DNA of 64,000 nucleotides from a virus: positions 1 through 64,000 of the IMG/VR virus record IMGVR_UViG_3300045988_094428; one strand, written 5' to 3'. The position numbers and the translations under genes are program-made. Positions 8,776-60,512 of the stretch are shown here, one piece after another. Each line of letters starts with the position of its first letter. Position 1 is the stretch's first letter. The notes beneath the pieces are model-generated. The model did no database searches. It was not told where the DNA came from and saw only the letters and a program-made list of their open reading frames with translations.

Positions 8776-9883
8776 GAAATGGTTGCCTGACCTTAAACAT
8801 ATCGTGAATTGCTGGAATATCCTTAGAGATTAACGTACCAACTATATGCGGTGACGTAATATAGGGCAGACAGGTTCTCTGATATGGTGAAAATCGTTAA
8901 TATTGGACAATCAGCAACCAAGCATCTAGCTTTGCTAGATGAAGGCTCAACGACTAAGTGCGATATAATATAAGTTAGATTAGAATTTATATAGAATGGA
9001 GGTGAAAATATGAGACATAAAAGTACATTAACAGAAAATGATAGCAATTTAGTAATTGAAATGTATAATAGTGGTATGTACCTAAAAGATATAGCCAGTT
9101 CTTTTCATTGCAGAGTGACTAAGATTACTGATATTTTACATGACGCTGGTATTAGAACAAACAATGAAGGGAAATATCTAAATCGGCTTGCAAATACAGC
9201 ATACTTTGACGTAATTGATAGCGAAGTAAAAGCGTATCTCCTTGGTTTTATAACCGCAGATGGTTCGGTTGGAGCAAGGACAGGGAGGAATTTTGGTAAA
9301 ACACTAAGGCTTGAACTTCAAGAGTCTGACGAGTCTATTTTGGATTTGCTCTCAAGCGAATTGAATATTAAAAGCAAGAAATATTATCACAATAAGAATG
9401 GGAAAATTACTGTTTCTGTTGGTATCAGTTCTACAGAGATAGTTGATTCTCTTGAAAAATACGGCGTGGTTGCTAATAAGACATACGTTCTCGAATCTTT
9501 ATTCATGGACTTACCAGATGATTTGTTGAGGGCATATTTACGTGGCCTTTTCGACGGTGATGGTAGTTTATATATTTCTAGCGGCATTGTTCATGGGAAC
9601 TTCACGGAAGGATTAGAGCATATCGTTGTGCAGTTCAGAGATATAATAAACTCCAAAATTGGCATCGAGAATACCACAAAGATTCAGTGCAATAATGGTG
9701 CATATCATGCTGTGTGGAATGGCTCTAATTGCGTAAAGCTATGTGAATATCTTTATAAGGACGCAAAATATTTCTTGCCGAGAAAATATGAATTTGCAAC
9801 TACAGCTATAAAGTCTAACTAATTCTAACTTATATTAAAGATATAGTCTGACCTTATTGGAAACAGTAAGATTAACAAAAATG
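8776..9883 (+). mobile_element. Putative group I intron (1108 nt) interrupting the phoH Walker A codon; carries a LAGLIDADG homing endonuclease ORF
   Basis: Exon 1 ends in U (8775), the element ends in G (9883). Joining 8775 to 9884 restores GTYGSG-KSFLSMQMGL, a canonical Walker A. The downstream ORF continues with PhoH motifs (ARGEGSAVGYLPGEFEQKV, VVDEAEDLTESQLRLVGTRLGQNSRIFFSGDYKQ). Confidence 0.5.
9010..9822 (+). CDS. LAGLIDADG homing endonuclease (intron-encoded)
   Basis: Two LAGLIDADG motifs (YLLGFITADGSV, LRGLFDGDGSL); own RBS GGAGGTGAAAAT-ATG. Confidence 0.7.
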   Translation: MRHKSTLTENDSNLVIEMYNSGMYLKDIASSFHCRVTKITDILHDAGIRTNNEGKYLNRLANTAYFDVIDSEVKAYLLGFITADGSVGARTGRNFGKTLRLELQESDESILDLLSSELNIKSKKYYHNKNGKITVSVGISSTEIVDSLEKYGVVANKTYVLESLFMDLPDDLLRAYLRGLFDGDGSLYISSGIVHGNFTEGLEHIVVQFRDIINSKIGIENTTKIQCNNGAYHAVWNGSNCVKLCEYLYKDAKYFLPRKYEFATTAIKSN

Positions 9884-10402
9884 AAATCATTTCTAAGTAT
9901 GCAGATGGGATTATATGGTGTAAATGAGAAAGGCTATCAGTCCAAGATTCTTGGTGTACGTGAAGCGCGTGGCGAAGGTAGCGCAGTTGGTTACTTGCCC
10001 GGAGAGTTTGAGCAAAAAGTTGGTGATTTCTTTAAGCCTTTGGAGCAACAGCTAAAAGGCGGTGAGTTTGAGTTGCAGAGTCTAAAGCAGCGTGGTGTAC
10101 TTGATGTTCAGATTCCTTATTATCTAAAAGGAACTACTTACGATAGCACCATTATGGTTGTTGACGAAGCAGAGGATTTGACGGAATCGCAGTTGCGTTT
10201 GGTTGGCACACGGCTTGGTCAGAACTCAAGAATTTTCTTTTCTGGTGACTATAAGCAGTCACTAATCAATAAGACTATTAGCAATCCGCTTGTTAAGATG
10301 TGTGACGAATTTAAGGGTAGCCCTAATTTTGCTTGCGTATTTCTTGACACCGATGTTCGTAGTGAAGCATCTAAGATGTTTGCTACTTTGTTTAAACAGT
10401 AA
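9884..10402 (+). CDS. phoH: PhoH-like ATPase exon 2 (remainder of Walker A and the PhoH core)
   Basis: KSFLSMQMGL... then PhoH-family DEAQ-like box VVDEAEDLT and GDYKQ motif. Confidence 0.55.
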   Translation, partial: KSFLSMQMGLYGVNEKGYQSKILGVREARGEGSAVGYLPGEFEQKVGDFFKPLEQQLKGGEFELQSLKQRGVLDVQIPYYLKGTTYDSTIMVVDEAEDLTESQLRLVGTRLGQNSRIFFSGDYKQSLINKTISNPLVKMCDEFKGSPNFACVFLDTDVRSEASKMFATLFKQ

Positions 10403-10768
10403 TTGAATTATGTATTTGCCTAATCATTTTGAAGCTATCGACAAGAGTGTTTTGAATGATAAGGCCAGATATAAAGAAGACTTTGGTGATATGTATAGTC
10501 TATTGCTGGGTCTTCTTTCTACATCTGGCATTTATCCGAAGCATTCTTTAGATTATAATAAGATAACACTGGAGTTTGACGTAGATAACCGTATGTTACA
10601 GATTATGATTTCTGACTTGTATGGTGTGTATACATACGTAAATTATAATTCCGTAAGTAACGTAGTTACGTTAAATTTAGCTAGTTGGACTACTTATGGT
10701 AAAATTTACCAGTTAGCCAATGCTATCTACGAATCATACTTTAGATTGAAGAAAAATTCAAAAACCCC

Positions 10769-10797
10769 TTGACTTTTCTGTGAAAGTATGGTATTAT
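10769..10797 (+). promoter_or_regulatory. sigma70-like promoter (family member)
   Basis: aaaaaccccTTGACTtttctgtgaaagtaTGgTATTAT. Confidence 0.55.
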
Positions 10798-11180
10798 ATA
10801 GGTGTTCCAAGAAATCTTGAATAAAAGGAGGGTTAAGAATGGTCGTTAAAGTTGATGAAGCAAAGAAAGCAAACGGAGTCGCGTATACTGAAACATGGTA
10901 TCTCGACAACATTTCATCTGTGAAATTTTATACGCTTCCGACTGATGGTGAAGTTAATATGCCCATTATGGAAGTATACAAGCGTAGCAATAACACTATT
11001 GATGGAGTTGAGCCACTCAAGTATGCTATGGGCCAGAATCAGCAGAATGTTACTCTTATGACCGACACTGGGTATATTATCGAGAAATTTGGGTACGAAG
11101 CTGTTTCTGAAGGCTGTGTTGTTCAGGATGTAAACGAAAGCCCGATTATGAAATCTAAGTAAAAATATTTTCTAAACCTC

Positions 11181-11209
11181 TTGACAAATTTACATTTTTA
11201 TGGTAAAAT
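11181..11209 (+). promoter_or_regulatory. sigma70-like promoter
   Basis: TTGACAaatttacatttttaTGgTAAAAT. Confidence 0.5.
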
Positions 11210-11467
11210 ATTAGTGTTCAAGGAGGTGCGAGAACCATAAGGAAAAGCGGCTTTTTGACCACTTTGATGAATTTTGGAGTTAGTGAAAAAGATGCAACCG
11301 ATTTTGCTAACGAGGTTATCAACAGAGGTGGCAAGATGAGTTATGAGGGTGCTTATCATATTTGGGAAACCGAAATGATTAAGGCCGGAATCGCATCTAC
11401 AAAAGATAAGATGGTTGCAAAAGATACAATCAGCAATAAATTATTTGGATAAAAGGAGTATCTAATT

Positions 11468-12967
11468 ATGGCAAATTTTGCAAATGCAGTTCGTGAATCT
11501 GCACGAATGACCACTACCGCAAATGGAGCAAAGTGCTACAATACCACTGGTAGCAAGATGCTTGACCTGTTCTCTACCGCTGGCGGTATGCGCACTCGAA
11601 TCAATGATGTTCGTGATGCGTTCTCTGCGGCATGGAACGAGAATCCTGAGCTGGCAATTAAGCTGGCTTTCTATTGTCGTGACGTGAGAGGTGGACAGGG
11701 TGAACGTGACGTTGCACGTGAGATGCTTCGCTGGGTCGCAGAATATCATCCTTCCACTATGCGTAAGAATTTGAAGTTCTTGCCTGAGTATGGTCGTTGG
11801 GACGATATTTACGTCTTTGTTGGCACTAAGGTCGAGAATGACGTATGGCAGATGGTTCGTGAGCAGTTCACCGAGGACATCAAGAACGTCAATTCCGGTA
11901 AGTCCTGTTCTCTGATGGCTAAGTGGCTGAAGTCAGTCAATACTTCCTCTAAGAAGTCTGTCGAGTTTGGTCGGTTGACCGCTCGTAAGTTGGGACTGTC
12001 TTATATGCAGTACCAGAAGACTCTGGCAAAACTGCGTAAGTACATTAACGTGACCGAGGTTAATATGTCTGCAAACAAGTGGACTGATATTAACTACGAA
12101 GCTGTCCCTTCTAAGGCTATGACTAACTATCGTAGCGCATTCGCCCGTCACGACCACGAAGGATTTACCGACTATATCAACGCTGTTAAGGCCGGAGAAA
12201 AGACTATTAAATCTAACACTTTGTATCCTTATGACCTTGTACATCAGTACATGGGCGGCGGTGGAATGGTTTCTTATCGCTCCGGTTACTACAACTGCGG
12301 TGGTTTGGCAGATAAGGAAGATGCTGTTGTTGAAGCACAGTGGAAGGCATTGCCCAACTACATTGACGGAAACCATAACGTGATGGTTATGGCAGATACG
12401 TCTGGTTCTATGCGTGGTCAGCCCATCGAATCCGCTCTTGGCCTTGCAATGTATTTTGCAGAGCGTAATAGTGGCCCTTATAAGAATCTGTTTATGACCT
12501 TTAGCTCTCATCCTTGCTATGTCACTCTGGATGAACAGAGTATGCTCGGCAACTTGAAGAAGGCCGCAAAAGCTGACTGGATGGGTTCTACCAACCTTGA
12601 AGCTGCCTTTGCTAAGATTCTCAAGACTGCGACTGACAACCACCTGACTGATGACGAGTTGCCCAAGGCACTTGTTATCATCTCGGATATGCAGTTTAAT
12701 AAGGCGTTGATTCAGGGCGACAACTACTTCGACTCTATGAAGAATATGTATGCCGCACACGGTTATACCCTTCCTCATGTTGTGTTCTGGTGCGTAAATG
12801 CTTGGGCTGGTTCTACTCACCATAATAACTACAACGACTACGTTACTACGTTTAGCGGTAATGCCGCAAGCACTTTCCGTGATGTTCTCGGAACTATCGG
12901 TTATAATGCTTACGAGGCTATGTTGAAGGTTCTGAATGGTGAGCGTTACGCGCAGATTCATGCCTAA
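11468..12967 (+). CDS. vWA-domain protein with a ~300-aa N-terminal region that may be TROVE/DUF2828-like
   Basis: MIDAS motif VMVMADTSGSMRG in the C-terminal half. The N-terminal similarity to the TROVE module of Ro60-like proteins is tentative and recalled, not computed. Confidence 0.4.
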   Translation: MANFANAVRESARMTTTANGAKCYNTTGSKMLDLFSTAGGMRTRINDVRDAFSAAWNENPELAIKLAFYCRDVRGGQGERDVAREMLRWVAEYHPSTMRKNLKFLPEYGRWDDIYVFVGTKVENDVWQMVREQFTEDIKNVNSGKSCSLMAKWLKSVNTSSKKSVEFGRLTARKLGLSYMQYQKTLAKLRKYINVTEVNMSANKWTDINYEAVPSKAMTNYRSAFARHDHEGFTDYINAVKAGEKTIKSNTLYPYDLVHQYMGGGGMVSYRSGYYNCGGLADKEDAVVEAQWKALPNYIDGNHNVMVMADTSGSMRGQPIESALGLAMYFAERNSGPYKNLFMTFSSHPCYVTLDEQSMLGNLKKAAKADWMGSTNLEAAFAKILKTATDNHLTDDELPKALVIISDMQFNKALIQGDNYFDSMKNMYAAHGYTLPHVVFWCVNAWAGSTHHNNYNDYVTTFSGNAASTFRDVLGTIGYNAYEAMLKVLNGERYAQIHA

Positions 12968-13025
12968 TGTTTGACTAAACGATGGCAACACCGCCACCGT
13001 TAATTTTTAATCTAAAGGAGAAAAT

Positions 13026-14558
13026 ATGGTTAATCTTTTCGCATTTATTCCTGTCGTCGCAATTATCGCTGTAATTGCATTGATTGTTATTGTTTTCAAG
13101 TCTTGTTATAAGAAAGCACCGCCCAATAAAGCGATGGTCATTACTGGGCCGTCTGGTAGCAAGACTGTTCACGGTAAGGCTTGCTTTGTCATTCCGCTGA
13201 TTCAGCGTGTTGATTATATGTCTTTGGAGAACATTCAGGTAGACTTTACGTCTCGTGATGAGATTCCTACCAAGGACGCTATCAATATCAATGTTGATGC
13301 GGTTGCTAATATGGCTATTGACACCGAACCGGAGCGCATGGCGGTTGCCGCATCTAAGTTTCTTGGATATTCTATCGCAGACATCCAGACGATTGTCCAG
13401 CCTATTTTGGAAGGTAACATCCGCGAAATTATCTCTCAGACTACTCTGAAGGAGTTGATTCAGGGAGACAAGAAACAGTTTGCTGAAAAGGTTATGGAGA
13501 ATGTTGCCCCTAACCTTGCAGACCTCGGTTTGAAGCTAACTACGTTTAACATCCAGAACTTCAAGGATAGAAATGGCGTGATTGAGAATCTGGGTATTGA
13601 GAATACTGTCCAGATTTCTAAGGACGCCAAGAAAGCACAGGCACAGGCAAAGGCAGAAATTGCTATTGCAGAAGCAGAAAGCGCACGTGCCGCAAATGAA
13701 GCACAGGTCGTAGCTGATGCTGAGATTGCTCAGAAGCAGAACGAACTGGCTATCAAGAAAGCACAGCTGAAGAAGGTTGCGGAAGTCGAACAGGCTCGTG
13801 CCGATGCCGCACGTGGAATTGAGGCTGAGGAACAGCGTAAGGCGCAGGAAATTGCGACCGCAAACGCAAACCTTGCTCGTCAGGAAAAGGAAATTGAACT
13901 GAAGGAGCGCGAGGTTTCCATCAAGGAAAAGTCTCTGGAAGCAGAGGTCAAAAAGACAGCAGAAGCAAAGCGCTACGCTGACCAGCAGGCCGCAGACGCA
14001 CATCTGTATACCGTCCAGCGTCAGTCTGAGGCTTCACTGTTCGACCGTCAGAAGAAGGCAGAAGCAGAGAAGGTTGAAGCTACCCAGAGGGCAGAAGCTG
14101 AAAAGATTACCTCTGAGGCAAAGCGTATTGCCGCAGAAAACGAAGCTGCTGGTATCAAGGCAAAGGGCGTTGCAGAAGCAGAAGCTATTCGTGCAAAGGC
14201 ATTGGCAGAGGCAGAGGGCACTCTGAAAAAGGCAGAAGCTATGCGTGAGTACGGTGATGCTGCAACTATGGACATGAAGTTGGCTGTTGCCAAGGCTTAT
14301 ATTGACAAGTTGCCTGAGATTGCCGCCGCAGTTGCCGCACCTATGGCAAATATTGGCAATATCACCATGTATGGCGAGGGCAACACCGCAAAGCTGACTG
14401 GTGACGTTACCAAGACCATGAAGCAGATTACCGATGGCTTTACTGATGCCACTGGTTTCAATCCTATGATGCTGTTGTCTGGTGTTCTGGGTGGTAAGCT
14501 GGCCGCGTCCAACAACGGTTCTACTGTAAACGTCCATGTTGACGGTGACAATCAGTAA
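13026..14558 (+). CDS. Flotillin-like SPFH/band-7 membrane protein
   Basis: N-terminal TM helix, SPFH-like core, long AEAEAxRA coiled-coil repeats typical of the flotillin/YqiK family. Confidence 0.55.
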   Translation: MVNLFAFIPVVAIIAVIALIVIVFKSCYKKAPPNKAMVITGPSGSKTVHGKACFVIPLIQRVDYMSLENIQVDFTSRDEIPTKDAININVDAVANMAIDTEPERMAVAASKFLGYSIADIQTIVQPILEGNIREIISQTTLKELIQGDKKQFAEKVMENVAPNLADLGLKLTTFNIQNFKDRNGVIENLGIENTVQISKDAKKAQAQAKAEIAIAEAESARAANEAQVVADAEIAQKQNELAIKKAQLKKVAEVEQARADAARGIEAEEQRKAQEIATANANLARQEKEIELKEREVSIKEKSLEAEVKKTAEAKRYADQQAADAHLYTVQRQSEASLFDRQKKAEAEKVEATQRAEAEKITSEAKRIAAENEAAGIKAKGVAEAEAIRAKALAEAEGTLKKAEAMREYGDAATMDMKLAVAKAYIDKLPEIAAAVAAPMANIGNITMYGEGNTAKLTGDVTKTMKQITDGFTDATGFNPMMLLSGVLGGKLAASNNGSTVNVHVDGDNQ

Positions 14559-14578
14559 TCATTCTCTTTTAGATTCTT

Positions 14579-14600
14579 GCAGGGCATACGCCCTGCTTTT
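14579..14600 (+). terminator. Rho-independent terminator
   Basis: GCAGGGC-atac-GCCCTGC followed by TTTTATAT. Confidence 0.8.
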
Positions 14601-14699
14601 ATATGGGGTATTAGTCTAACTGGACAAAACATCACTCTCCTAAAGTGAATTTCTCCGTTCGAGTCGGGGATGCCCCACCAAAATTTTTCTCAAAACCAC

Positions 14700-14728
14700 T
14701 TGACAAATCGCAAAAAGTATGATAGAAT
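14700..14728 (+). promoter_or_regulatory. sigma70-like promoter
   Basis: aaaaccacTTGACAaatcgcaaaaagtaTGaTAGAAT. Confidence 0.55.
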
Positions 14729-15213
14729 ATAGGTGTTCCAAGGGGAATAGAAAGAAAGGTATATTGCATGAAATATGAGACTGTAAAAATGCACGAGTCT
14801 ATTCCTATGACACCGAAACGTCTTTATGAGTGGGCTGTTGCAAACGGTGTTGAAGATTGTCAGATGTATTTTCCGGCAGACGAGCTTGAATGAGATGTTT
14901 ATTTGACTATGGATGATATGTGTAAAGAACATCGTGATTTTGATAAGAACAAGGAAATGGTAGTCAATATTCGTAGGTAATTGTATGATGGTTTTTGTCT
15001 ATGAACTGAAATATGTTGATAAACGCAAATTAGTCCCAGTCACAGAGAGTCCAAAGACGAGGACAATCGCTACGGTGATTAACAAAGTTACTGGAAACGA
15101 TGTTAAGCGTTTGTATAATCGCTTGAAGCGAAGTGGCAATATGCCACAGATGGAATATCTAAAAGATGGAAATTATCGTATTATGTATATGGCACTGCCT
15201 AATGGGTTGAAGT

Positions 15214-16056
15214 TTGACCCATTCTATAAGGACGGGATATATTACAGAGGAAGGAGCGTATTTGACCGTGATGACACTTGATGACAGAATGAAAACTTAT
15301 TATGAGGGTGCATATCGTGTTTATCTGACACGGCGTATGCCTGTCATTATCCGAATCGACTCTCGTGCTGGGCACACCTTTACAAAGAATCTGAAAAAGC
15401 CCTTTGATGTAGTTTTCACTGCAACGATGCAGGATACAATGAAGTATCTGTGTGAAAACATTCAGGGTTGTGTAATTGGTTATACGCAGTCTGACGAGAT
15501 TACTTTGTGCCTTGTTGATTATGACAAGCTGGAAACCGATGCTTGGTTTGGTTATAATCTAAACAAACTGGTAAGCCTCAGTGCATCAATGGCTACGTTG
15601 GCATTTAATAAGTGCTTTGAACGTAATGCCAATAGAACCCTCACTAAGATGGCATTGTCCTCTGGCGTGAATAAGTTTGAAATTGACGCTTACTCTGCTA
15701 CATTGGCAAAGTGTAAAGAAAAGGGTTTGTGTTTCGATTCTCGCGCCTTTAATATCCCGAAGGAAGAGGTGTGCAACTGCTTCTTATGGAGACAGCTTGA
15801 CGCTTCTCGAAACAGTATTCAGGCGGTTGGTCAGGCTAATTTTTCGCATACCGTTCTGAATGGTAAGAATACTTCCGAGATTCAGGATATGTTGATGAAC
15901 GAGAAGGGTATCAACTGGAATAATCTTGCTACAGAATTGAAGCGTGGCTCTTGTTGTGTGCGAGATGAAGGTGGCTGGACTATCGACCATGAGATTCCTA
16001 AGTTCTCTGGCGATGGTCGTGATTACATCGACAAGCTGATTTATATCGGTGAATAA
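15214..16056 (+). CDS. Thg1-like protein (tRNA-His guanylyltransferase / 3'-5' polymerase family). True start probably ATG ~15274.
   Basis: VIIRIDSRAGHTFTK matches the Thg1 RIDGRxFhkF motif; GYTQSDEITLCL matches the Thg1 GQSDE motif. Confidence 0.6.
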   Translation: MTHSIRTGYITEEGAYLTVMTLDDRMKTYYEGAYRVYLTRRMPVIIRIDSRAGHTFTKNLKKPFDVVFTATMQDTMKYLCENIQGCVIGYTQSDEITLCLVDYDKLETDAWFGYNLNKLVSLSASMATLAFNKCFERNANRTLTKMALSSGVNKFEIDAYSATLAKCKEKGLCFDSRAFNIPKEEVCNCFLWRQLDASRNSIQAVGQANFSHTVLNGKNTSEIQDMLMNEKGINWNNLATELKRGSCCVRDEGGWTIDHEIPKFSGDGRDYIDKLIYIGE

Positions 16057-16083
16057 ATTTTAAAAAATATTTTCCAAACCCCT

Positions 16084-16111
16084 TGACAAATGACAAAAAA
16101 TTTGATATAAT
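16084..16111 (+). promoter_or_regulatory. sigma70-like promoter
   Basis: ccaaaccccTTGACAaatgacaaaaaatttgaTATAAT. Confidence 0.55.
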
Positions 16112-16136
16112 AAGGGTGTCAAGAGGAGGTGGTTGA

Positions 16137-16703
16137 ATGGCTACACGATGGTATGATTAGGTCTATCTTCCAAATCATCCGAGGGCAGGAACGAACGGAA
16201 ATGTATTTGTCCATGTAATTGTTGCTGAACAAAAGATTGGAAGATACCTGAAGCCGGAAGAAGTTGTTCATCATATCAACATGGATAAGCATGATAATCG
16301 ACCAGAAAATTTATTGGTTGTCGCTACAAATAGTGACCATGCGGCAATTCATAATGGATGTAACTATGAATTGGATAGTGATGGTGTGGCACATTCAATA
16401 AAGAAAGCGTGCTTTTGTAAGGTATGTGGAAAGATTATTTCTTATGGTTCTGAAATGTGTATTGATTGCTGGCATGAATTTTTGAACAAAAATAGTGCTC
16501 CACATAAAATAGTCGATGGACATTGCATAATTATAACACGTGATGAATTAAAATATAAGATACGCCATAAGTCGTTTGTCGGTATCGGCAAAGAATTTGG
16601 TGTCTGTGACAATACGATAAGAAAATGGTGTAAAAAGTACAACCTCCCTTTTAGAACAAAAGATATAAAGAAATATACAGATGAAGAGTGGGTGAGTGTT
16701 TAA
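16137..16703 (+). CDS. HNH homing endonuclease with an in-frame TAG at codon 8 (16158-16160)
   Basis: MATRWYD-TAG-VYLPNHPRAGTNG...VHHINMDKHDNRPENL is the classic HNH N-terminus and HNH motif, continuous across the TAG. Strong RBS AAGAGGAGG. The C-terminal ~60 aa is shared with the 17348-18100 ORF. Confidence 0.6.
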
Positions 16704-16898
16704 CACCCACTAATATACGTCCTTAGTGTAACGAATAGCACGAAAATCTCCAAAATTTTTAGTAACAGTTTGACTCTGTTAGGACGCGCCAGTTAGACTT
16801 TGTTTGGTTAAGTTAAACATCAATAGCTAGTCTATGTTGGTGAGTTAAAAACCAAGTTCGTGCGCACGAATTTCTTGCGGGAGCAAGGTCGTTTATAT

Positions 16899-16973
16899 GC
16901 GCTTATCGTTCAATGGATAGGACAAAACTCTTCTAAAGTTTTTATGTGGGTTCAATTCCTACTAGGCGTACCA
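16899..16973 (+). tRNA. tRNA-Arg (anticodon TCT), CCA encoded
   Basis: Acceptor GCGCTTA/TAGGCGT, D arm GTTC/GGAC, anticodon arm AAACT-CTTCTAA-AGTTT, T arm GTGGG-TTCAATT-CCTAC. Confidence 0.7.
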
Positions 16974-16974
16974 C

Positions 16975-17060
16975 AGACGCATACAGCAATCCATAAATTT
17001 TGATGGTTTAAAAAGAATGCTTAAAACAATCTTTTACGGTTCGATTCCGTTCTGCGTCTA
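16975..17060 (+). ncRNA. tRNA-like element, identity unresolved
   Basis: Acceptor-like pairing AGACGCA/TGCGTCT; T8A9; T arm ACGG-TTCGATT-CCGT. No convincing D/anticodon arm by hand; 85 nt. Confidence 0.3.
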
Positions 17061-17137
17061 ATTTTTAGTTATTCTTTATCTTTTTCTGAATCTGATAGAT
17101 ACGAACAGCAACACTTTCTTTGTTCGCGCCACTAATT

Positions 17138-17212
17138 GCGGATATAGTTTAGATGGTTAGAACGCCACACCGAAATGTGGAGACGTGGGTTCGAGTCCCA
17201 CTTATAGTCGTG
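17138..17212 (+). ncRNA. tRNA-like element, probably a pseudo-tRNA
   Basis: Canonical D arm (GTTT-agatggtta-GAAC) and T arm (GTGGG-TTCGAGT-CCCAC). The anticodon stem CCACA/TGTGG encloses only 6 nt. The acceptor stem does not pair. Confidence 0.3.
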
Positions 17213-17220
17213 TCTAATAT

Positions 17221-17293
17221 GCCCGGTTAGTCAAGTTGGCTAAGACGAGTGATTCTCAATCACTAGGCGGCAGTTCAATCCTGCCACCGGGTA
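17221..17293 (+). tRNA. tRNA-Glu (anticodon CTC), no encoded CCA
   Basis: Acceptor GCCCGGT/ACCGGGT, anticodon arm AGTGA-TTCTCAA-TCACT, T arm GGCAG-TTCAATC-CTGCC. Confidence 0.6.
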
Positions 17294-17298
17294 CTTTA

Positions 17299-17330
17299 TG
17301 GTCGAGTAGCTCAGTTGGTTAGAGCAGTAG
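17299..17330 (+). ncRNA. Truncated tRNA 5' fragment (acceptor + D arm), directly upstream of the PD-(D/E)XK endonuclease gene
   Basis: GGTCGAG-TA-GCTC-AGTTGGTTA-GAGC-A-GTAGA... but no matching 3' half (no CTCGACC) within 1 kb. Confidence 0.4.
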
Positions 17331-17347
17331 ATAAATGGGGTATGAAT

Positions 17348-18100
17348 ATGGTAAATTCAAAGATGAAAGGCAATATTGCAGAGTCGCGTATTTTATATGA
17401 ATTTGTTTAGAGAGGAATACCAGTTTCAATACCTTACGGCGATAATGAACGCTATGATATGATAGCGGAATTTAATGGAAAGCTGAATAAGATACAGATA
17501 AAGTTCTGCAATCAACAAATAGTTGATGGTTCGATAAGCTGTCCATGTTCTAATATAGTAAATCCATTAACAAAAAGTAAGCATAGAGAATTATATGTTA
17601 ATGATGTTGATTATATGGCATTTTACATATATGTATGGGATGTTGCTGTTATAATTCCAACAAGTTACATAGGGAATAGGATTCAGATAAAGATTAGAAA
17701 AGAACGTGCAAAGAACAATCAAACTACAGCTTCTACATTTGTTGATGACTTTACTTTTGATAAAATTGTTGGAGCAGATGTTCGTAATGTGATAGAAGAA
17801 CAACAAAATGTATATGAAAAAGCATATAATAGATGTGTTGATTGCGGATGTGCCATATCGGATAGGGCTGTGAGATGTTTAAGGTGTAGAAACTTGAAGC
17901 AATATGAAGAAACGGCAAATCCGAATATGATAGATAGAGACACGCTTAAATCCATGATTAGAAATATGCCATTTAAGCATATCGCATCTATATGTGGAGT
18001 TTCAGATAACTGTATTAGAAATTGGTGTAAAAGATATAATCTTCCATATCGTACATCTGACATTAAGAAATATACAGATGACGAGTGGAGTGATGTATAA
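17348..18100 (+). CDS. PD-(D/E)XK (Hjc/archaeal-resolvase-like) endonuclease with C-terminal domain shared with the HNH protein; in-frame TAG at 17408-17410
   Basis: GNIAESRILYEFV-TAG-RGIPVSIPYGDNERYDMIAEFNGKLNKIQIK matches the E..V...L...G..V..P..D...YD.I.E..GK...IQ.K nuclease core across the TAG. C-terminus ...NCIRNWCKRYNLPYRTSDIKKYTDDEW matches the 16137-16703 ORF. Confidence 0.5.
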
Positions 18101-18239
18101 TTTTTAGCTAATTACCAAAACAATATCCCACTGACATAATAATACCCATTTTTTCGGTTTGGCTAACAGCGCATAGCTATAAAAGTCTAGGATTATTGGA
18201 TAGGCTAACAATGACTGCTGGAAAGACAGCAATTTATAT

Positions 18240-18316
18240 GCGGCAGTAGTTCAACTGGATAGAACAATCGGCTACGAACCGATAGGTTGCGAGTTCAAGT
18301 CTTGTCTGCCGTACCA
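18240..18316 (+). tRNA. tRNA-Arg (anticodon ACG), CCA encoded
   Basis: Acceptor GCGGCAG/CTGCCGT, anticodon arm ATCGG-CTACGAA-CCGAT. Confidence 0.7.
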
Positions 18317-18438
18317 GATAAATGAGTCTCAAATTACGCTGGACAAAGGGGAGCCTTTTATGGGTGACTGTTATGACAGTGACCCTGATTATCGGTGACG
18401 ATACTAACTCATGAGAGTGCGTAAGCCGACATTTATAT

Positions 18439-18524
18439 GTGCGTGTATCCGAATTGGCATAGGAGCTGCTTTGAGATGGCAGTGTCGAAAGACATTGTGG
18501 GTTCAAGTCCCACCATGCACACCA
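18439..18524 (+). tRNA. tRNA-Leu (anticodon GAG), class II with GAAA-capped variable arm, CCA encoded
   Basis: Acceptor GTGCGTG/CATGCAC, anticodon arm CTGCT-TTGAGAT-GGCAG, variable arm TGTC-GAAA-GACA, T arm GTGGG-TTCAAGT-CCCAC. Confidence 0.65.
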
Positions 18525-18527
18525 AAA

Positions 18528-18649
18528 TACAGGATGGTTTCAATGGTAAAACATCGCCAAAATAAGAATGTGTCTATGTAGACATAAGCCGCAATTATTT
18601 TTTCTTAAAAGCCAAGACGAAGATGTTGGTTCGACCCCAACTCCTGTAT
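18528..18649 (+). ncRNA. 122-nt tRNA-like RNA 'A'. Perfect acceptor, D and T arms, but ~50 extra nt (with a TGTCTA-TG-TAGACA hairpin) in place of a normal anticodon arm.
   Basis: Acceptor TACAGGA/TCCTGTA (7/7), D arm GTTT-caatggta-AAAC, T arm GTTGG-TTCGACC-CCAAC. Internal segment cannot be folded into a 5-7-5 anticodon arm by hand. Confidence 0.4.
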
Positions 18650-18656
18650 TTATTAT

Positions 18657-18732
18657 GCGAGATTAACTCAACTGGAAGAGTGCTACCCTTACAAGGTAGA
18701 AGTTACAAGTTCGAGTCTTGTATTTCGCACCA
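18657..18732 (+). tRNA. tRNA-Val (anticodon TAC), CCA encoded
   Basis: Acceptor GCGAGAT/ATTTCGC, anticodon arm CTACC-CTTACAA-GGTAG, T arm ACAAG-TTCGAGT-CTTGT. Confidence 0.7.
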
Positions 18733-18818
18733 TACGACAGTTTATAAGCTAAACAAGTCCTGCCGTGGACAAAACAAAAACTTAATTTGCGGTTGAGTGA
18801 CCTTAAACTCACCATTAT

Positions 18819-18935
18819 GGCTGTGTAGCTCAATAGGCTAGAGCGCGTAAAACCTATCTATTTTAGATAGTAACAGCTACACATTTTTCCATTATAAGGA
18901 CGAGGTTTATGGTTCGAGTCCATACGCAGCCACCA
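18819..18935 (+). ncRNA. 117-nt tRNA-like RNA 'B'. Same architecture as A, with a ~50-nt insert containing a CTATCTA-tttt-AGATAG hairpin.
   Basis: Acceptor GGCTGTG/CGCAGCC, D arm GCTC-aataggcta-GAGC, T arm TATGG-TTCGAGT-CCATA, CCA encoded. Confidence 0.4.
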
Positions 18936-19327
18936 AAAATCTAAAAAAGAAGGGAAATGAATCCGATGCAGTAGATTGATAATAATAATCCTATGGTTTT
19001 CTTTCAAATGTTGGGTGAAGTTGCCGGTGATAACATCATGAGCAAGATTTCCCGACTAAAGATTAGTGAAGAAAATGGAATTGTTACTTTATATCTAAGA
19101 GATGAACGTGAACCGTTTAACGATAGTGAACTTAGACAGCTAAGATACATCTTAGAAAGATGGTATGATATAATTTCTTTTAGGCGTGAAGATAGGCTTA
19201 CTATGTTAGATATGAAGGTAAGAAAATAACCCTCCTTTATTTTTATATATAAAAAGACACATCCAGCAAACTTTTATTAAATTTTGAGTAGCCTTATGAT
19301 TCAATTTTTAATGTGTCTTTTAGATTT

Positions 19328-19415
19328 GCCAGTGTAGTTCAGTTGGTAGAACGCGGGTTTTGTAATCCCGATGCCGAAAGGGTTCTCGCAGGTTCGAGTC
19401 CTGTCACTGGCTCCA
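19328..19415 (+). tRNA. Class II (long variable arm) tRNA with atypical anticodon region CGGGT-TTTGTAA-TCCCG (anticodon TGT by canonical numbering; contains GTA)
   Basis: Acceptor GCCAGTG/CACTGGC perfect, D arm GTTC/GAAC, 17-nt variable arm, T arm GCAGG-TTCGAGT-CCTGT, CCA. Anticodon stem has a U-U at its base, so the loop is effectively 9 nt. Confidence 0.45.
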
Positions 19416-19416
19416 T

Positions 19417-19492
19417 GCCACTTTAATTCAGTAGATAGAATGATGCGTTCGTATCGCATACGTCGTAGGTTTGATTCCTACAGGTGGCTCCA
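19417..19492 (+). tRNA. tRNA-Thr (anticodon CGT), CCA encoded
   Basis: Acceptor GCCACTT/AGGTGGC, D arm ATTC/GAAT, anticodon arm ATGCG-TTCGTAT-CGCAT, T arm GTAGG-TTTGATT-CCTAC. Confidence 0.7.
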
Positions 19493-19630
19493 ATCGCACC
19501 TATGCTGTGGTAGAATAGGTATAGGCAAGTATTTTAACTACCGTGTCCATAGAGTTAATGGACTTGGGAGGTACTGACAAGACAGAAGAGCAAGTACCAT
19601 GCACGTGGGCGGGTATTCGTGCTTTCATTT

Positions 19631-19718
19631 GCGCTCGTAGCTAAGTTGGTATAGCACCGGACTTTTAATCCGGGGTGGATTATTCCTATCGTGGGTTCAA
19701 GTCCCACCGGGCGCACCA
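19631..19718 (+). tRNA. Class II-architecture tRNA with anticodon TTT (Lys-reading anticodon on a long-variable-arm scaffold), CCA encoded
   Basis: Acceptor GCGCTCG/CGGGCGC, D arm GCTA/TAGC, anticodon arm CCGGA-CTTTTAA-TCCGG (perfect), 17-nt variable arm with GGA/TCC stem, T arm GTGGG-TTCAAGT-CCCAC. Confidence 0.5.
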
Positions 19719-19866
19719 CGCGGTAAGTAGTTTTCGAGTTGCGACTATTGTAGCTGGTATTCGTAAAAAATATAGTAAATGCGTGATATGACAGTATGCC
19801 GCGTTTGTGTCAAGGAACAAGCACATTGCGGATAAACCGATGACTGCTGGAAAGACAGCGTTTTAT

Positions 19867-19943
19867 GTTTCCATAGCTCAGTTGGTTAGAGCGCAATCCT
19901 GATAAGATTGAGGTCGAATGTTCAATTCATTCTGGAAACACCA
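19867..19943 (+). tRNA. tRNA-Ile (anticodon GAT), CCA encoded
   Basis: Acceptor GTTTCCA/TGGAAAC, D arm GCTC/GAGC, anticodon arm CAATC-CTGATAA-GATTG, T arm GAATG-TTCAATT-CATTC. Confidence 0.75.
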
Positions 19944-19955
19944 CTTATTTATTAT

Positions 19956-20046
19956 GTGGTAGTACCCAAGAGGTTGAAGGGGCTTGCTTGGAAAGCAAGT
20001 AGGCGGCGTAAGCCGTGCAGGGGTTCAAATCCCTTCTACCACGCCA
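19956..20046 (+). tRNA. tRNA-Ser (anticodon GGA), class II, CCA encoded
   Basis: Acceptor GTGGTAG/CTACCAC, anticodon arm CTTGC-TTGGAAA-GCAAG, 19-nt variable arm GGCGGC-gtaa-GCCG, T arm AGGGG-TTCAAAT-CCCTT. Confidence 0.7.
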
Positions 20047-20173
20047 CGACCGTAAAGATGAACAAAATGGAGCATACGGTGTTACAAAACCGTCTCGGAG
20101 TGATTGTATCACAAGGGGATTTAACGGAATATATGCTCGATGCGTGGTTCGCAAAACCTAAATTGCAAATATG

Positions 20174-20247
20174 CGTCATGTGCCAGACGGCTAGGCGAGA
20201 GACTGCAAATCTCTTTTAGATTGGTTCGACTCCAATATGACGCTCCA
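20174..20247 (+). tRNA. tRNA-Cys (anticodon GCA), CCA encoded
   Basis: Acceptor GCGTCAT/ATGACGC perfect, anticodon arm AGAGA-CTGCAAA-TCTCT, T arm ATTGG-TTCGACT-CCAAT. Confidence 0.7.
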
Positions 20248-20249
20248 GT

Positions 20250-20540
20250 AAATGAGAATCAAAGCGGACTGGTAAAGGGATGCCTTTAGGAGCAGACCGA
20301 ACTGTTGTAATAGAGGTACACTATTACACTTTGCGGTGCTCTGATTAGTGGTTTTGATGCCAACAATGGTGTTCGCGCCACCCCATCATTTATCCTCAAG
20401 CTGGCTTGAGAAACGATACTCGGAAGGGTATCACGCCCCACCGTGGGAGAAAGCGGCAGTCCGGGTCGGGACTAGAGAATACGACCACGCGATATTTGGT
20501 GGATGGGAACGAGTGAGTACGATTCGTTCCCAATTTTTAT
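20250..20540 (+). ncRNA. Candidate structured non-coding RNA (~290 nt) ending in an intrinsic terminator
   Basis: Dense local hairpins (GTAATAG/CTATTAC, CAAGC/GCTTG, CCCAC/GTGGG, CCGGG/CCCGG), no credible ORF. Terminator GGGAACGA-...-TCGTTCCC + AATTTTTATT at 20505-20540. Confidence 0.3.
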
Positions 20541-20564
20541 TATTTATGAATAGGAGATGGTTGC

Positions 20565-21095
20565 ATGAAGAAACTGCTAGGAGCTATCATTGCTTTGCTT
20601 ACAACATTTGTGATAATTTGCGCTGTGGCAGTTCCGTCAAAAGCGGCAGATTTTAGTGACAAGTTTGAATTATATGAATCGTGGAATAACAATCTAAAAG
20701 TATATACAAGAGAAGTGAGTGAGGAACTTGATGTTCCGTATTCTGCGTTAGTTGCTATTATCTATCACGAGTCAAGATTTAAGAACGATGTTGGCACAAG
20801 CTATATTGGCCTAATGCAAGTTGGATGTACGTCAGATATTTTGAATTTTCTTTCAAATAATGGACTAAAAACATCTAAGAAAGGTTTGTATAACCCAGAG
20901 ACAAACATTAGAGCTGGTGCATTGATTCTTAGATACGCAATGGATAAAGCCACAAATATGGAAGATGCGTTCTATATTTATACTTGCGGCGAGGGTGCTG
21001 TAAAAAAGCGAAAGGCGAACGGTCAGAAGAAAAATAAAGCTACTATTGAAATTACAGAGCTTTATTACGAATATTCTGAATACTTTGCTGAATAG
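20565..21095 (+). CDS. Lytic transglycosylase (SLT domain) with signal peptide. The TAG at 21093-21095 is followed by 60 stop-free, protein-like codons to TGA 21276-21278, so a read-through product 20565-21278 is possible.
   Basis: IIYHESRFKNDVGTSYIGLMQV (catalytic E-S, GLMQ motif); N-terminal hydrophobic leader. Extension GKSDYRQFLLDELNGVQSELDETNGLLQ... is coiled-coil-like. Confidence 0.55.
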   Translation: MKKLLGAIIALLTTFVIICAVAVPSKAADFSDKFELYESWNNNLKVYTREVSEELDVPYSALVAIIYHESRFKNDVGTSYIGLMQVGCTSDILNFLSNNGLKTSKKGLYNPETNIRAGALILRYAMDKATNMEDAFYIYTCGEGAVKKRKANGQKKNKATIEITELYYEYSEYFAE

Positions 21096-21293
21096 GGTAA
21101 ATCTGATTATCGACAGTTCCTATTAGATGAACTAAATGGGGTTCAGTCAGAACTCGACGAGACGAACGGTTTGCTTCAGTCTTGTGAAGTGTATCAGTCC
21201 GACTATTACAACCAGCAGTTGTTGTTTATAGAGCAAAAGATAGACTTCATAAATTCTGAATTAAAAAATTTAGAATGACCTCTTGACTTCTTG

Positions 21294-21347
21294 AATCCGG
21301 GATGGTATACTACTACTAGGTAGTAATCATCCCGGATTTTTCTTTAA
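21294..21347 (+). terminator. Hairpin terminator overlapping a promoter-like TTGACT/TATACT pair
   Basis: ATCCGGGATG...CATCCCGGAT followed by TTTTTC. Confidence 0.5.
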
Positions 21348-21365
21348 GAAATTTTCCAAAACCCC

Positions 21366-21394
21366 TTGACTTTGGCCGGTTTCTATGCTATAAT
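21366..21394 (+). promoter_or_regulatory. sigma70-like promoter
   Basis: ccaaaaccccTTGACTttggccggtttctaTGcTATAAT. Confidence 0.6.
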
Positions 21395-21816
21395 ATAGAC
21401 AGTCGAAAGGCAATAAAACAAAAACAAAAGAACTAAAGGAGAAAAAATTATGAAGCTGAAGGTTTATGAGAATCACAATCGCGTTATCGCTCTGGGTCAC
21501 GAGTTTGGCAAGCGTATCAAGGTGATGGCCGTGTGTCACGCAGAGGATACCTTTGACGCGGACTTCGGTAAGAAGCTGGCAGAGTTCAAGTACAAGATTG
21601 CCAAGAAGGATGCTAAGATTGCAGAGCACAAGCGTTACATTAAGGCACTGAAGGCCGCCATTGCCGAATGTGAGCATGAGATTGCGGCACAGGAGGCCGC
21701 AATCGTTCTCGTGACCGAGAACCGCGATAAGGTTGTTGCAGATAAGGACGCATTTATTGCGACCAAGTATGTACACAACGAGGGGTAATTACCCCTTATA
21801 CATAACAGGTGTTTAG

Positions 21817-58052: not shown

Positions 58053-60512
58053 TTAATAATTAAATTCTCTGTCTAAGCCTGCACCAAAACGAATGATATT
58101 TATTTTTTTTGATATTGGTCTTATTACAACAACATCCCACGCTTGTTCTGTTGCATCACCTTCTGTTCTTGACGGAGAAACAAGTCCATAAGTTGTATCA
58201 TAACCAGTAATAGCTCTGATTGAATCAGAATTAACATCTGTTTGTTCAAATTTTCCACACGTTGAAGCAATAGATAACCATGGTTCTGTAAAAGCATAGT
58301 CGCAATGACTATGACCGAATAACTGAATAAATTTACCACCACTTGAAATGAACGTAGAAATAGCATTGTTAATTGCTTCAGACCTTGCTTCTGACGGAAT
58401 CTTGTTGCTAAAATTCTGATTCTTTTGTGTAGACATATGCTCACAAAGAACCACAGTCTTATCTGTGTTCAGCGCTGTATCTATAAACCATGTCTTTGTA
58501 TCTTCTGAGATTACATAAGCATTCAAATAATTTGTATTGATAAATACTACCCTTATGTTCAACTCTTTATAATCAACATAGAAATCAGTTCCATTAGTGG
58601 CTTTGTTTACGATTGCATTTTTAGGGGTCGCAGACATAAATGCTCTGTAAGTCTGCCCTATATCGAATTTAGGACTTGGGTCATAATTCGTATCATGGTT
58701 CCCAACAGCAAACAAGTACGGGATTCCGATACTGTTGAAAGCTGATAACATATAGTCTGCTTGTGATAAAGATGTTTCAATATTACTACTTCCATTTATG
58801 TTATCACCAAGATTTGCAATGAAATCGCAATGAATTTTCTTAGCAAAATACTTTATATTTTTAATGGTTTCGTCAAAATTCTGAAATACTATTGAAGTAG
58901 GTGCATAATGAATATCTGTGATTTTCGGAAACACAAGACAAGGCTCTGTCATGCAATTTCTAACAGAAGCGATAGTTTCGTTCATTTCCGAAACAAATTT
59001 TTCTGATAAATCGTTTTCCAGCTTAGTTATTCTTTTTTCGTGGTCTGACAGCACGGAATCATATACCTTAACTGTTATGCCAAGTTCTTCAAGTGTGATA
59101 GTCGAAGATGTATCTGTTTTTGAGCAAGCGATGCAAATATAAGAATCTACAGATGGAATCCAATCCATAGGTTCTGTTTCCCATCCACCCCGCAAAACAT
59201 TCGTGTACTTTCCATCAGCAAGTGTCCATGCACTTCTTGCAAACTGTTGCCCTAAAATAGTTTCAATATGAACCTTTGTATTTGCTTTTATGAATAGCAA
59301 TTCTGAAAAAGATATTCTTGTCGTTGAACTAACTTTAATTGGTTTTGCTCCACCGGTTTGTCTTGACCATGATACTCTTGCCCAATCTGTAAAAAGCCTC
59401 GACCCATCTTCAAGAAGCATTTTTAACACATCTACATCGTTTCTTAGCGCAGATGTTTTTTCTACAGTGTCAGCAACAGTACCTTGTAAATGCGCATCCT
59501 TTGCCCAATTTGCTGAAATCTTTCTGTTACTATTTACATTAAGTGCAACATAATAACAATCTCTCTTGTTGTTAGTAACTGTTCTTTTATTACCATATGT
59601 TGAATCAAGTGCAAAGTAGTCGATGTATTTTTTGTCTGCATCATATAGTTGGTATTGGTTAGTCGGAAGTGCTTCGCCATCATCTGAATAGATAGTAAAT
59701 ATAGTTCCTTTTGGAATCTCAAATGGTACAAGCTCCGTGCTATTAATTGTACTTTTGTAAAATCCAACAATACCAGAAATTTTAGTTATATCTTCTTTTA
59801 GCTGACTTTCCGCATCGGTAGCTCTATCAATTTCACCCTACAAGTCCTTTCTAATAGAAGTAACTTTAGACGATTCTGCTTTACCAGCCAATTTATCTCC
59901 GACAGTTTTTGCATCAGCGGCATAACCAGAAATTGTAAGTGTTGTGTCTGTCTTTAACGATGCGGCACTTTTAGCGGCAGCATCAGCAGCCGCTTGAGCC
60001 GCTTTTGATGCTGCAAGTGTATCATTATAATATTTGGCAGCGATAGCATTAAAACTATCAATAGCTGCTTGAAGTGCATTTTCATCTTCGATAGGTTCGC
60101 CAGTATCAAGTAATCCTTCCTCAACCTAAAAAGTAGCTGGTTTTGTATGAAGAATATATTGTGATACGTTAGTCATATCATTTGTATCATATATTGATAC
60201 GTCATAAGTTACAGTGCCTTTAGCACTTGTGACATTAGAATCAAGAACCCAGTCGAACAGAACGAATTGCTCGTTACCTTCTGTAATAACCTCTCTGCTA
60301 TTACAGAAAAACTGGTCATAACGATTCAGAGAATTGACATATCTGACAGTAAGAATCTTATCGGTAATATCAATACCATCAATCACTGATGGAATCTTAA
60401 AGGTAATATATCTTGAATCATTATCATTTACAACAGCCAATTCTTCTGTCGCGCTTGGAACGATTGTTCTATTTACAATTTCAAAAATATAAGTTCCGTT
60501 CAAGCTATTCAA
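58053..60512 (-). CDS. Tail-fibre-like protein (~819 codons) with a C-terminal metallophosphoesterase domain, containing two in-frame TAG codons (plus 60126-60128 and 59838-59840)
   Basis: A single continuous frame. ...HTKPATF-TAG-VEEGLLDTGEPIEDENALQAAIDSFNAIAAKYYNDTLAASKAAQAAADAAAK... and ...SIRKDL-TAG-GEIDRATDAESQLKEDI... The downstream segments have no start codon of their own. C-terminal calcineurin-like motifs GDNINGSS and FAVGNHDTNYD. RBS AGGAGG + TTG start at 60512. Confidence 0.6.

Follow-up and report, generated by a model that had tools for sequence, protein, structure and literature searches.

A probable homing-endonuclease cassette of a phage, putatively gated by an in-frame TAG, in place of the 3' part of a tRNA-Phe gene

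The endonuclease I-Ssp6803I is encoded in a group I intron of the cyanobacterial tRNA-fMet gene of Synechocystis and recognizes a 23-bp pseudo-palindrome, and its family has been described as 'generally encoded in cyanobacteria' (PMC3384342). In phage T4, the free-standing GIY-YIG endonuclease SegB homes in the tRNA cluster (PMC2330249), and according to a 2014 review all phage introns then known lay in protein-coding genes (PMC3984707). In Agate phages, a group I intron endonuclease contains in-frame recoded stop codons, and its translation has been proposed to await a switch of the genetic code (bioRxiv 10.1101/2021.08.26.457843). Here we analyze a 64,000-nucleotide (nt) stretch of viral DNA (positions 1 to 64,000 of the IMG/VR record IMGVR_UViG_3300045988_094428, hereafter the window), in which a PD-(D/E)XK endonuclease gene with an in-frame TAG directly follows the 5' fragment of a tRNA gene within a tRNA array. 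The features around this junction are as follows.

17221-17294, plus strand: intact tRNA-Glu(CTC), left neighbour and proposed left homology arm (ARAGORN; Rfam 61.4 bits)
17300-17331, plus strand: 5' remnant of tRNA-Phe(GAA), tRNA positions 1-31, by identity to the intact gene
17332-18100, plus strand: endonuclease cassette, consisting of the 10-nt leader TAAATGGGGT and the open reading frame (ORF) 17342-18100, which ends in TAA (alignment A1 of alleles with and without the endonuclease; tblastn, which puts the ORF at 17342-18097)
18101-18239, plus strand: spacer after the cassette, proposed right homology arm, collinear with the post-CCA spacer of intact tRNA-Phe (A1)
18240-18316, plus strand: intact tRNA-Arg(ACG), right neighbour (ARAGORN; Rfam 61.6 bits)

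The remnant is a 32-nt string, GGTCGAGTAGCTCAGTTGGTTAGAGCAGTAGA, present in a single copy in the window and in none of 100 shuffles. It begins 5 nt after tRNA-Glu(CTC), within the tRNA array at about 16717-20247, and comprises the 5' strand of the acceptor stem, the D arm and the 5' strand of the anticodon stem (GTAGA). The initial annotation had let the fragment end at 17330; because GTAGA is also present, the end lies at 17331. For comparison, the neighbouring Thg1-like protein served as query and gave 70 IMG/VR loci, whose phages are about 100-220 kb in size. Among them, L001-L005 are close relatives with 93-96% protein identity; L072 and L073 are ENA assemblies, and L071, a contig of 1.4 kb, shares the array context. 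Searches of the phage collection by megablast and blastn returned tRNA-sized matches only, and the phage therefore has no annotated close relative there. Its closest cultured relatives are Enterocloster phages, with 45-50% identity across part of one replication protein.

In L002, L003 and L005, ARAGORN identifies an intact 77-nt tRNA-Phe(GAA) 5 nt past tRNA-Glu(CTC), the same position as the remnant, and the remnant equals its first 32 nt base for base, which confirms that the tRNA acceptor and D-arm fragment is real. This intact allele reads GGTCGAGTAGCTCAGTTGGTTAGAGCAGTAGA, then CTGAAAATCTACGTGTCGCCCGTTCGATTCGGGCCTCGACCACCA, then TTTTAGCTAATTAC and onward, and its middle 45 nt, spanning the anticodon loop to the CCA end (tRNA-Phe positions 32-76), are the part replaced elsewhere: in the window, L001, L004, L072 and L073 the 769-nt cassette stands in for them. 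The right junction of the cassette falls exactly at the CCA end, and the spacer after the cassette stop codon is collinear with the spacer after the CCA of the intact gene. Since 45 nt of tRNA are out, 769 nt are in and the spacer is unbroken, we interpret the event as a replacement with a precise right junction. The earlier proposal of an endonuclease gene inserted into a tRNA gene thus holds for the location, at tRNA-Phe positions 32-76, but not for a simple insertion. The site is polymorphic with identical junctions, six assemblies carrying the endonuclease (the window, L001, L004, L071, L072 and L073) and three lacking it (L002, L003 and L005), and it is the intact tRNA of these last three that defines the insertion site, as the initial annotation had anticipated of such relatives.

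The product of the cassette has three parts of interest.

17354-17758, plus strand: PD-(D/E)XK nuclease domain, I-Ssp6803I family (PF11645, E-value (E)=5e-21)
17408-17410, plus strand: in-frame TAG, codon 23, within the first helix of the nuclease domain, read as Gln from conservation and substitution pattern
17834-18097, plus strand: C-terminal zinc-ribbon (CxxC...CxxC) and helix-turn-helix module, putatively DNA-binding, shared with 16416-16700 of an upstream HNH ORF

The cassette is minimal, with a ribosome-binding site and the ORF as its sole contents. The ORF is in the frame of the tRNA fragment and may start at ATG 17348 as well as at ATG 17342. It matches PF11645 PDDEXK_5 with 75.6 bits (cut-off 26.1) over profile positions 2-137 of 138, unbroken across the TAG, and phmmer gives a direct match to 2OST, the structure of I-Ssp6803I (E=5e-4). 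For the AlphaFold model (mean predicted local distance difference test score, pLDDT, 79.8), the best PDB match in Foldseek is 2ost_A (E=3e-9, target-normalised TM-score 0.72), and the four best PDB matches are the four 2OST chains (E 3e-9 to 2e-7, target-normalised TM-score 0.66-0.72). P31, D39, Q52 and K54, invariant in the 17-sequence alignment A3, align with the P, D and QxK of 2OST. The profile score and the fold match bear out a PD-(D/E)XK endonuclease ORF directly after the fragment, and by sequence and predicted fold the N-terminal 140 amino acids (aa) can be assigned to the I-Ssp6803I family of PD-(D/E)XK homing endonucleases.

The two enzymes thus share the Pfam family, the best fold match and the P...D...QxK positions. 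Both are also tied to the tRNA anticodon region, a pseudo-palindromic target as described in PMC3384342 and in a title cited in PMC3984707. In contrast to I-Ssp6803I, the window gene lies outside any intron and its tRNA is destroyed, not spliced; it is borne by a phage and not by a cyanobacterial chromosome, its presumed target is tRNA-Phe, and it contains a recoded TAG. Moreover, its extra Zn-ribbon/helix-turn-helix module of about 95 aa is missing in I-Ssp6803I and in most family members: the majority of 250 homologues are 140-150 aa long and nuclease only, with a C-terminal extension in a handful.

We then compared the cassette with its surroundings. It is 99.9% identical to the copies of L001, L072 and L073, versus 90-95% for the flanks. 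Among the cassettes of the window, L001, L004, L072 and L073 there are 1-2 base differences in 769, while identity among the carriers falls to 90-95% in the flanking array, in the Thg1 gene and in the left region. The 139-nt right spacer comes in three haplotypes in three endonuclease-bearing genomes, with about 9 of 139 positions differing between the window and L001. Such a contrast between cassette and flank divergence is what recent horizontal spread would predict. At the same junction, but on another tRNA-Phe remnant, L071 carries a diverged endonuclease allele (61% identity) whose TAG occupies the same codon and whose flanks are 97-99% identical to the window; a diverged allele in near-identical flanks suggests that two endonuclease lineages compete for one site. 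Between the window and L071 the endonuclease has a non-synonymous divergence (dN) of 0.30 and a synonymous divergence (dS) of 1.27, and the first 50 codons, which span the TAG, have 16 synonymous against 3 non-synonymous changes. The endonuclease gene is intact, and these substitutions place it under strong purifying selection.

The cassette, which overwrote the 3' part of tRNA-Phe, is in our view likely to be an amber-gated homing-endonuclease element of the phage tRNA operon, free-standing and without an intron, and it is probably still homing. The enzyme would cut the intact tRNA-Phe allele of co-infecting relatives, with the cut in an allele of the L002 type predicted in or near GTAGACTGAAAATCTAC. 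Repair of the break from the endonuclease-bearing genome would then copy the cassette, with tRNA-Glu and the 32-nt remnant as the left homology arm and the spacer as the right one. The carrier genome would be immune because its site is gone, and no intron would be needed, presumably because loss of the phage tRNA-Phe is tolerated. T4 SegB offers a close parallel (PMC2330249): both are free-standing genes inside a phage tRNA cluster and variably present among related phages, the SegB recognition site includes a conserved tRNA motif, and SegB spread goes with loss of recipient tRNA markers. The nuclease fold differs, and SegB is without stop-codon gating. In the T4 map, segB lies between tRNA genes and does not overwrite part of one.

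Another role for an active nuclease is conceivable, though improbable: its main function might be that of a weapon against tRNA-Phe genes of the host or of competitors, the phage having deleted its own tRNA-Phe to avoid self-cleavage. The 23-mer anticodon arm of the target allele does occur in 12 further IMG/VR contigs, whose kinship to the phage is not established, the cassette shares its transcript with an operon otherwise retained by the phage, and a benefit to the phage has been reported for SegB-type enzymes (PMC13096335). Yet presence or absence at one site, near-identity on diverged backbones and a second diverged allele form the classic homing signature, and none of our data point to host cutting.

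The homing account also has to accommodate the TAG within the endonuclease gene, and here its operon and an upstream HNH gene are informative.

16083-16111, plus strand: tRNA operon promoter, sigma-70-type, TTGACA, 17 nt, TATAAT, with an extended -10 TG (12 of 12 consensus positions)
16128-16716, plus strand: HNH endonuclease cassette, ORF 16137-16703, with TAG at 16158-16160 (PF13392 HNH_3, E=1.6e-11)
20504-20532, plus strand: terminator-like hairpin after the last tRNA, an 11-bp stem followed by a T-run

The promoter is kept in L001, L002 and L004, whether or not the HNH gene is there. One promoter and the terminator bracket the array, so that both endonuclease genes ride on the tRNA transcript. 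The HNH cassette sits between the promoter and tRNA-Trp, where it replaces 19 nt found in L001 and L002; in the window and L004 it completes an AGGAGG ribosome-binding site, whereas in L001 and L002 the promoter stands directly before tRNA-Trp. The TAG of the HNH gene is codon 8 and is retained in the L004 copy (95% DNA identity, dN/dS = 0.038/0.297). Relative to L004, HNH codons 9-48, the 40 that follow the TAG ahead of any usable restart codon, have 5 synonymous and 0 non-synonymous changes.

The use of TAG elsewhere in the window was examined as well. Almost all plus-strand genes before 56 kb are without an internal TAG, the two endonuclease genes being clear exceptions. A tail-fibre-like gene on the minus strand (60503-58053), with a TTG start, an AGGAGG ribosome-binding site and a C-terminal metallophosphoesterase domain, contains two in-frame TAGs (60128-60126 and 59840-59838; codons 126 and 222) and no restart codons after them. 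In its orthologues CAG stands at the second of these positions and either TAG or CAG at the first, a pattern that indicates, at the level of sequence, TAG = Gln recoding in late genes of the phage. For the endonuclease gene, the independent ENA gene calls of the endonuclease-bearing contigs place Q at the TAG and do not translate under table 11. Conserved TAGs, TAG/CAG interchange and the Q gene calls together lead us to conclude that this lineage uses TAG = Gln (code 15), as reported in several gut phage groups (bioRxiv 10.1101/2021.08.26.457843; PMC9523058; PMC10607447). One SLT-like gene (20565-21095), whose terminal TAG is followed by a 62-codon in-frame extension, was ambiguous and was not used as evidence. 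A scan for stem-loops and ARAGORN runs on 80 sequences (79 loci and the window) gave no CUA-anticodon tRNA in the 64-kb window or the fetched loci, the genome being about 150 kb; some recoded phages are without a suppressor tRNA (PMC10607447).

The TAG at 17408-17410, noticed at the outset and crossed by the PF11645 match, is accordingly best read as a recoded Gln codon and not as damage. Should it instead be a nonsense mutation, the gene would be a pseudogene and the locus a dead relic, the fossil of an old insertion and deletion. The ORF is indeed broken at codon 23 under table 11, neither the window nor the fetched loci yielded a suppressor tRNA, and the sole two differences among the near-identical cassette copies are both non-synonymous. 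Against this, the TAG is held at the same codon in an allele at a dS of about 1.3, with strong constraint on both sides, the HNH gene has the same conserved-TAG pattern, and TAG and CAG swap among the tail-fibre orthologues. The six copies are also free of other stops or frameshifts, and the cassette is far better conserved than its flanks. We therefore regard a relic as quite unlikely.

For the homing cassette, the early TAG would have a consequence in time. The endonuclease gene seems to have no promoter of its own and to rely on that of the tRNA operon; its TAG should then hold back translation until the phage has begun to read TAG as Gln. The HNH gene at the operon head appears to be built and gated in the same way. 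The Agate intron endonuclease is alike in its early-transcribed context and in the proposed wait for a genetic-code switch. There, TGA = Trp and the host element is a self-splicing intron of a protein-coding gene; here, TAG = Gln, the genes have no intron and belong to a tRNA operon, and the same gating is proposed for both of their unrelated nucleases (HNH and PD-(D/E)XK). Each ingredient, as in SegB, I-Ssp6803I and stop-codon gating, has a precedent, and only the combination is new.

We also looked for the missing 3' half of the tRNA and for an intron. ARAGORN and Rfam found no tRNA between 17295 and 18239. The 24-mer of the 3' T-arm/acceptor does not occur in the 64-kb window, even when 3 mismatches are allowed; the exact 3' 20-mer is found in IMG/VR only in the three endonuclease-less contigs and is not found in a 149.8-kb endonuclease-bearing contig. 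Over 14000-21500, Rfam gave no Intron_gpI match at E<1 and no other intron or ribozyme near the cassette, of which only 10 nt are non-coding. This negative is meaningful because the same group I model does pick up an intron at 8730-9870 of the window (43 bits). Hence the absence of a matching 3' half, claimed from the start, stands, and neither an in-phase 3' half nor a larger non-tRNA structure was found. With introns of up to 3000 nt allowed, ARAGORN returned low-scoring chimeras of halves from different, already complete tRNAs, none credibly using the 17300 fragment; an 87-point 'tRNA-Gln i(34,171)' was discarded among them. Matches to the acceptor 3' strand CTCGACC or its G-U variants were T-loops of other tRNAs and a coding-region site at 59398. 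Folding of the remnant with the endonuclease leader gave z = -0.5 (window) and -1.8 (L071) with differing structures, no sign of a regulatory RNA role. A genuine intron or split tRNA, in which splicing, in cis or in trans, would join the 5' remnant to a 3' half located downstream or at another place and tRNA-Phe would still be made, is thus very improbable and already largely refuted: PDDEXK_5 genes between both tRNA halves in other phages (L074, L077 and L076, described below), the 40-55-nt intervening sequences of neighbouring window tRNAs and the RNA ligase, kinase-HD protein and Thg1-like protein of the phage would suit it, but the collinear post-CCA spacer follows directly on the ORF stop codon, the 3' half is missing as just described, no intron RNA signal appears although another group I intron is found in the window, and 10 nt of non-coding sequence are all the cassette holds.

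PDDEXK_5 genes occupy the tRNA arrays of unrelated phage contigs, too. In L074 (3880-4620) such a gene lies within the anticodon loop of tRNA-Lys(UUU), with both halves present and a sub-threshold group I match beginning at the anticodon arm (28.8 bits, E=3e-5). In L077 (6960-7600) one lies right after the anticodon of tRNA-Asn(GUU), again with both halves present; about 60 nt there are non-coding, with no ribozyme match. L076 has the uninterrupted counterpart of this tRNA-Asn gene and, at 7940-8420, a PDDEXK_5 gene in the same arrangement after the anticodon of tRNA-Asp(GUC). Positions 4001-4460 of L077 mirror the window, an endonuclease gene (4001-4420) being followed by a lone 3' tRNA fragment. 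From these arrangements, the PDDEXK_5 family seems to be specialised on tRNA anticodon regions, as intron-borne genes, naked insertions and one-sided remnants.

Several observations weigh against the homing account of the window cassette. The junction there lies at tRNA positions 31/32, versus 36/37 in the both-halves cases of other phages, so the deletion could be a later event, which would leave the first point of insertion uncertain. The cleavage target is a prediction from position and family only. The near-identical cassettes differ in two places (V/A and D/G), both times non-synonymously, and their near-identity could partly come from ordinary recombination and not from endonuclease-driven homing. 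Finally, a CUA-anticodon tRNA was seen neither in the window, which covers 64 of about 150 kb, nor in any fetched locus.

The PD-(D/E)XK and HNH ORFs have a C-terminal module in common. Modular homing endonucleases combine DNA-binding modules with catalytic domains, as in the NUMOD-type enzymes and in I-TevI with its Zn finger and helix-turn-helix. The initial annotation had noted a shared C-terminal domain of about 60 aa; it is real and longer, 95 aa at 44% identity (BLASTP, E=3e-21). A profile search with the module yielded 6732 cluster representatives, nearly always with the module at the C-terminus. Among the 122 best module matches, the N-terminal partner was GIY-YIG in 40, SegE-type GIY-YIG in 6, HNH_3 in 24, HNH in 12, PDDEXK_5 in 14 and LAGLIDADG_3 in 2. 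The suggested domain shuffling between endonuclease families is thus right but general, with the module on GIY-YIG, HNH, PD-(D/E)XK and LAGLIDADG nucleases, and the sharing within the window exemplifies how modular homing endonucleases are in general. The arrangement resembles NUMOD-type enzymes and I-TevI in that one DNA-binding module is joined to different catalytic domains. Unlike in the former, a NUMOD model (NUMOD1) was matched by just 1 of 122 scanned module carriers, and the best Pfam matches were weak ones to HTH_28 and HTH_Tnp_ISL3. From the positions of the two genes in one tRNA operon, it is plausible that the tRNA locus is the target of both enzymes.

Other members of the tRNA operon are unusual in their own right. 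At 18819-18935 (plus strand) a tRNA contains a 40-nt intervening sequence in the 5' strand of its anticodon stem and scores 44.6 bits in Rfam with the insert; removal of 18848-18887 gives a tRNA-Ile(UAU) with an ARAGORN score of 120.5, above all but one of the array's 13 ordinary tRNAs. The insert includes 9 nt complementary to tRNA positions 4-12 as well as a hairpin (CTATC/GATAG); it is unchanged in L002-L005 with a slight variant in L001. In IMG/VR it was found only in the same close relatives, and no insert-less allele was found there. It resembles the 'enigmatic' tRNA introns of Lak phages (PMC6784885). A tRNA-like gene at 18527-18650 (plus strand) has an anticodon stem, TCGCC/GGCGA, around about 55 nt in place of a 7-nt loop. 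This stem covaries (TCACC/GGTGA in L002), the acceptor and T stems have compensatory changes in L001 (G-C to T-A; T-A to C-G), and variation in the hairpin within the insert is confined to the loop; such apparent structural selection suggests a functional RNA. Two further tRNA-like genes on the plus strand are kept in relatives. In the one at 16975-17060 the 7 bp of the acceptor stem pair perfectly and a T arm is present, but a normal D arm is missing. The other, at 17138-17209 (Rfam 41 bits), has a 6-nt anticodon loop and mismatched acceptor pairs 2-71, 3-70 and 4-69, and these 5' acceptor mismatches lie 1 kb from the gene for the Thg1-like 3'-5' polymerase. Thg1-like enzymes repair tRNA 5' ends in mitochondrial tRNA editing.

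tRNA-Trp(CCA), the first tRNA of the operon, adjoins the HNH insertion site and has almost wholly different sequences in the window (16717-16791), L001 (10935-11009) and L002 (11403-11477); each version folds as a cloverleaf, and the surrounding DNA is 90-97% identical. It is possible that this divergence arose through endonuclease-driven allele replacement. The spacer of about 100 nt between tRNA-Trp and tRNA-Arg(TCT) (16792-16898, plus strand) corresponds to 6 nt in L002 and L003. Short GC hairpins (16873-16888, 18216-18231 and 19845-19860) with an (A/T)TTTAT(A/G)T motif lie 8-10 nt before three tRNAs and could be processing signals. Theta ribozymes adjoin tRNAs in recoded gut phages (PMC10879173); in the window, Rfam gave no ribozyme match at the hairpin motifs or the tRNA-Trp spacer.

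Just upstream of the operon, positions 13-16056 (plus strand) hold a cluster of RNA-repair type, with the following genes.

13-2211, plus strand: RNA ligase (PF09414), split by an intein with a LAGLIDADG endonuclease
2862-3668, plus strand: RlaP nucleotidyltransferase
7134-8039, plus strand: protein with an AAA_33 kinase and an HD domain
8089-10402, plus strand: PIN-PhoH
11468-12967, plus strand: DUF2828/DUF7788 protein
15214-16056, plus strand: Thg1-like protein (PF04446, E=1e-24)

The group I intron at 8730-9870 (plus strand) splits PIN-PhoH, scores 43.1 and 42.0 bits against RF00028 (E about 1e-9, just under the gathering score) and carries a LAGLIDADG ORF at 9010-9822; L072 has a single uninterrupted 401-aa PIN-PhoH gene. 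Four homing-type endonucleases thus lie within 18 kb, in the intein, in the intron (LAGLIDADG), and as the HNH and PD-(D/E)XK genes.

A broader idea, which we hold to be a long shot, is that this recoded gut phage clade may splice or repair interrupted tRNAs by a protein-dependent pathway. If so, tRNA genes would be permissive landing sites for intron-less endonucleases, with the truncated tRNA-Phe itself beyond rescue. Consistent with this are the anticodon-loop PD-(D/E)XK genes in tRNA-Asn and tRNA-Asp of L077 and L076 with no detectable ribozyme, the two window tRNAs with 40-55-nt anticodon-arm inserts and stems covarying among relatives, and the 'healing and sealing' genes within the same 16 kb (RNA ligase, kinase-HD, RlaP and Thg1-like). 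We know of no protein-dependent splicing or repair of interrupted tRNAs in bacteria or phages.

Elements of the kind described here are easily overlooked, as the tRNA remnant goes unseen by tRNA finders and the standard code makes both endonuclease genes look like pseudogenes. The I-Ssp6803I family is common in gut-phage tRNA arrays and, as this locus suggests, can invade a tRNA gene without any intron and destroy it in doing so. The tRNA genes of phages thus seem to serve as landing pads that can be spared, a property that helps to account for the variability of tRNA arrays between close phage relatives. Two unrelated endonucleases in one operon, each keeping an early TAG, moreover make a comparative case that recoded stops may time the expression of dangerous proteins.

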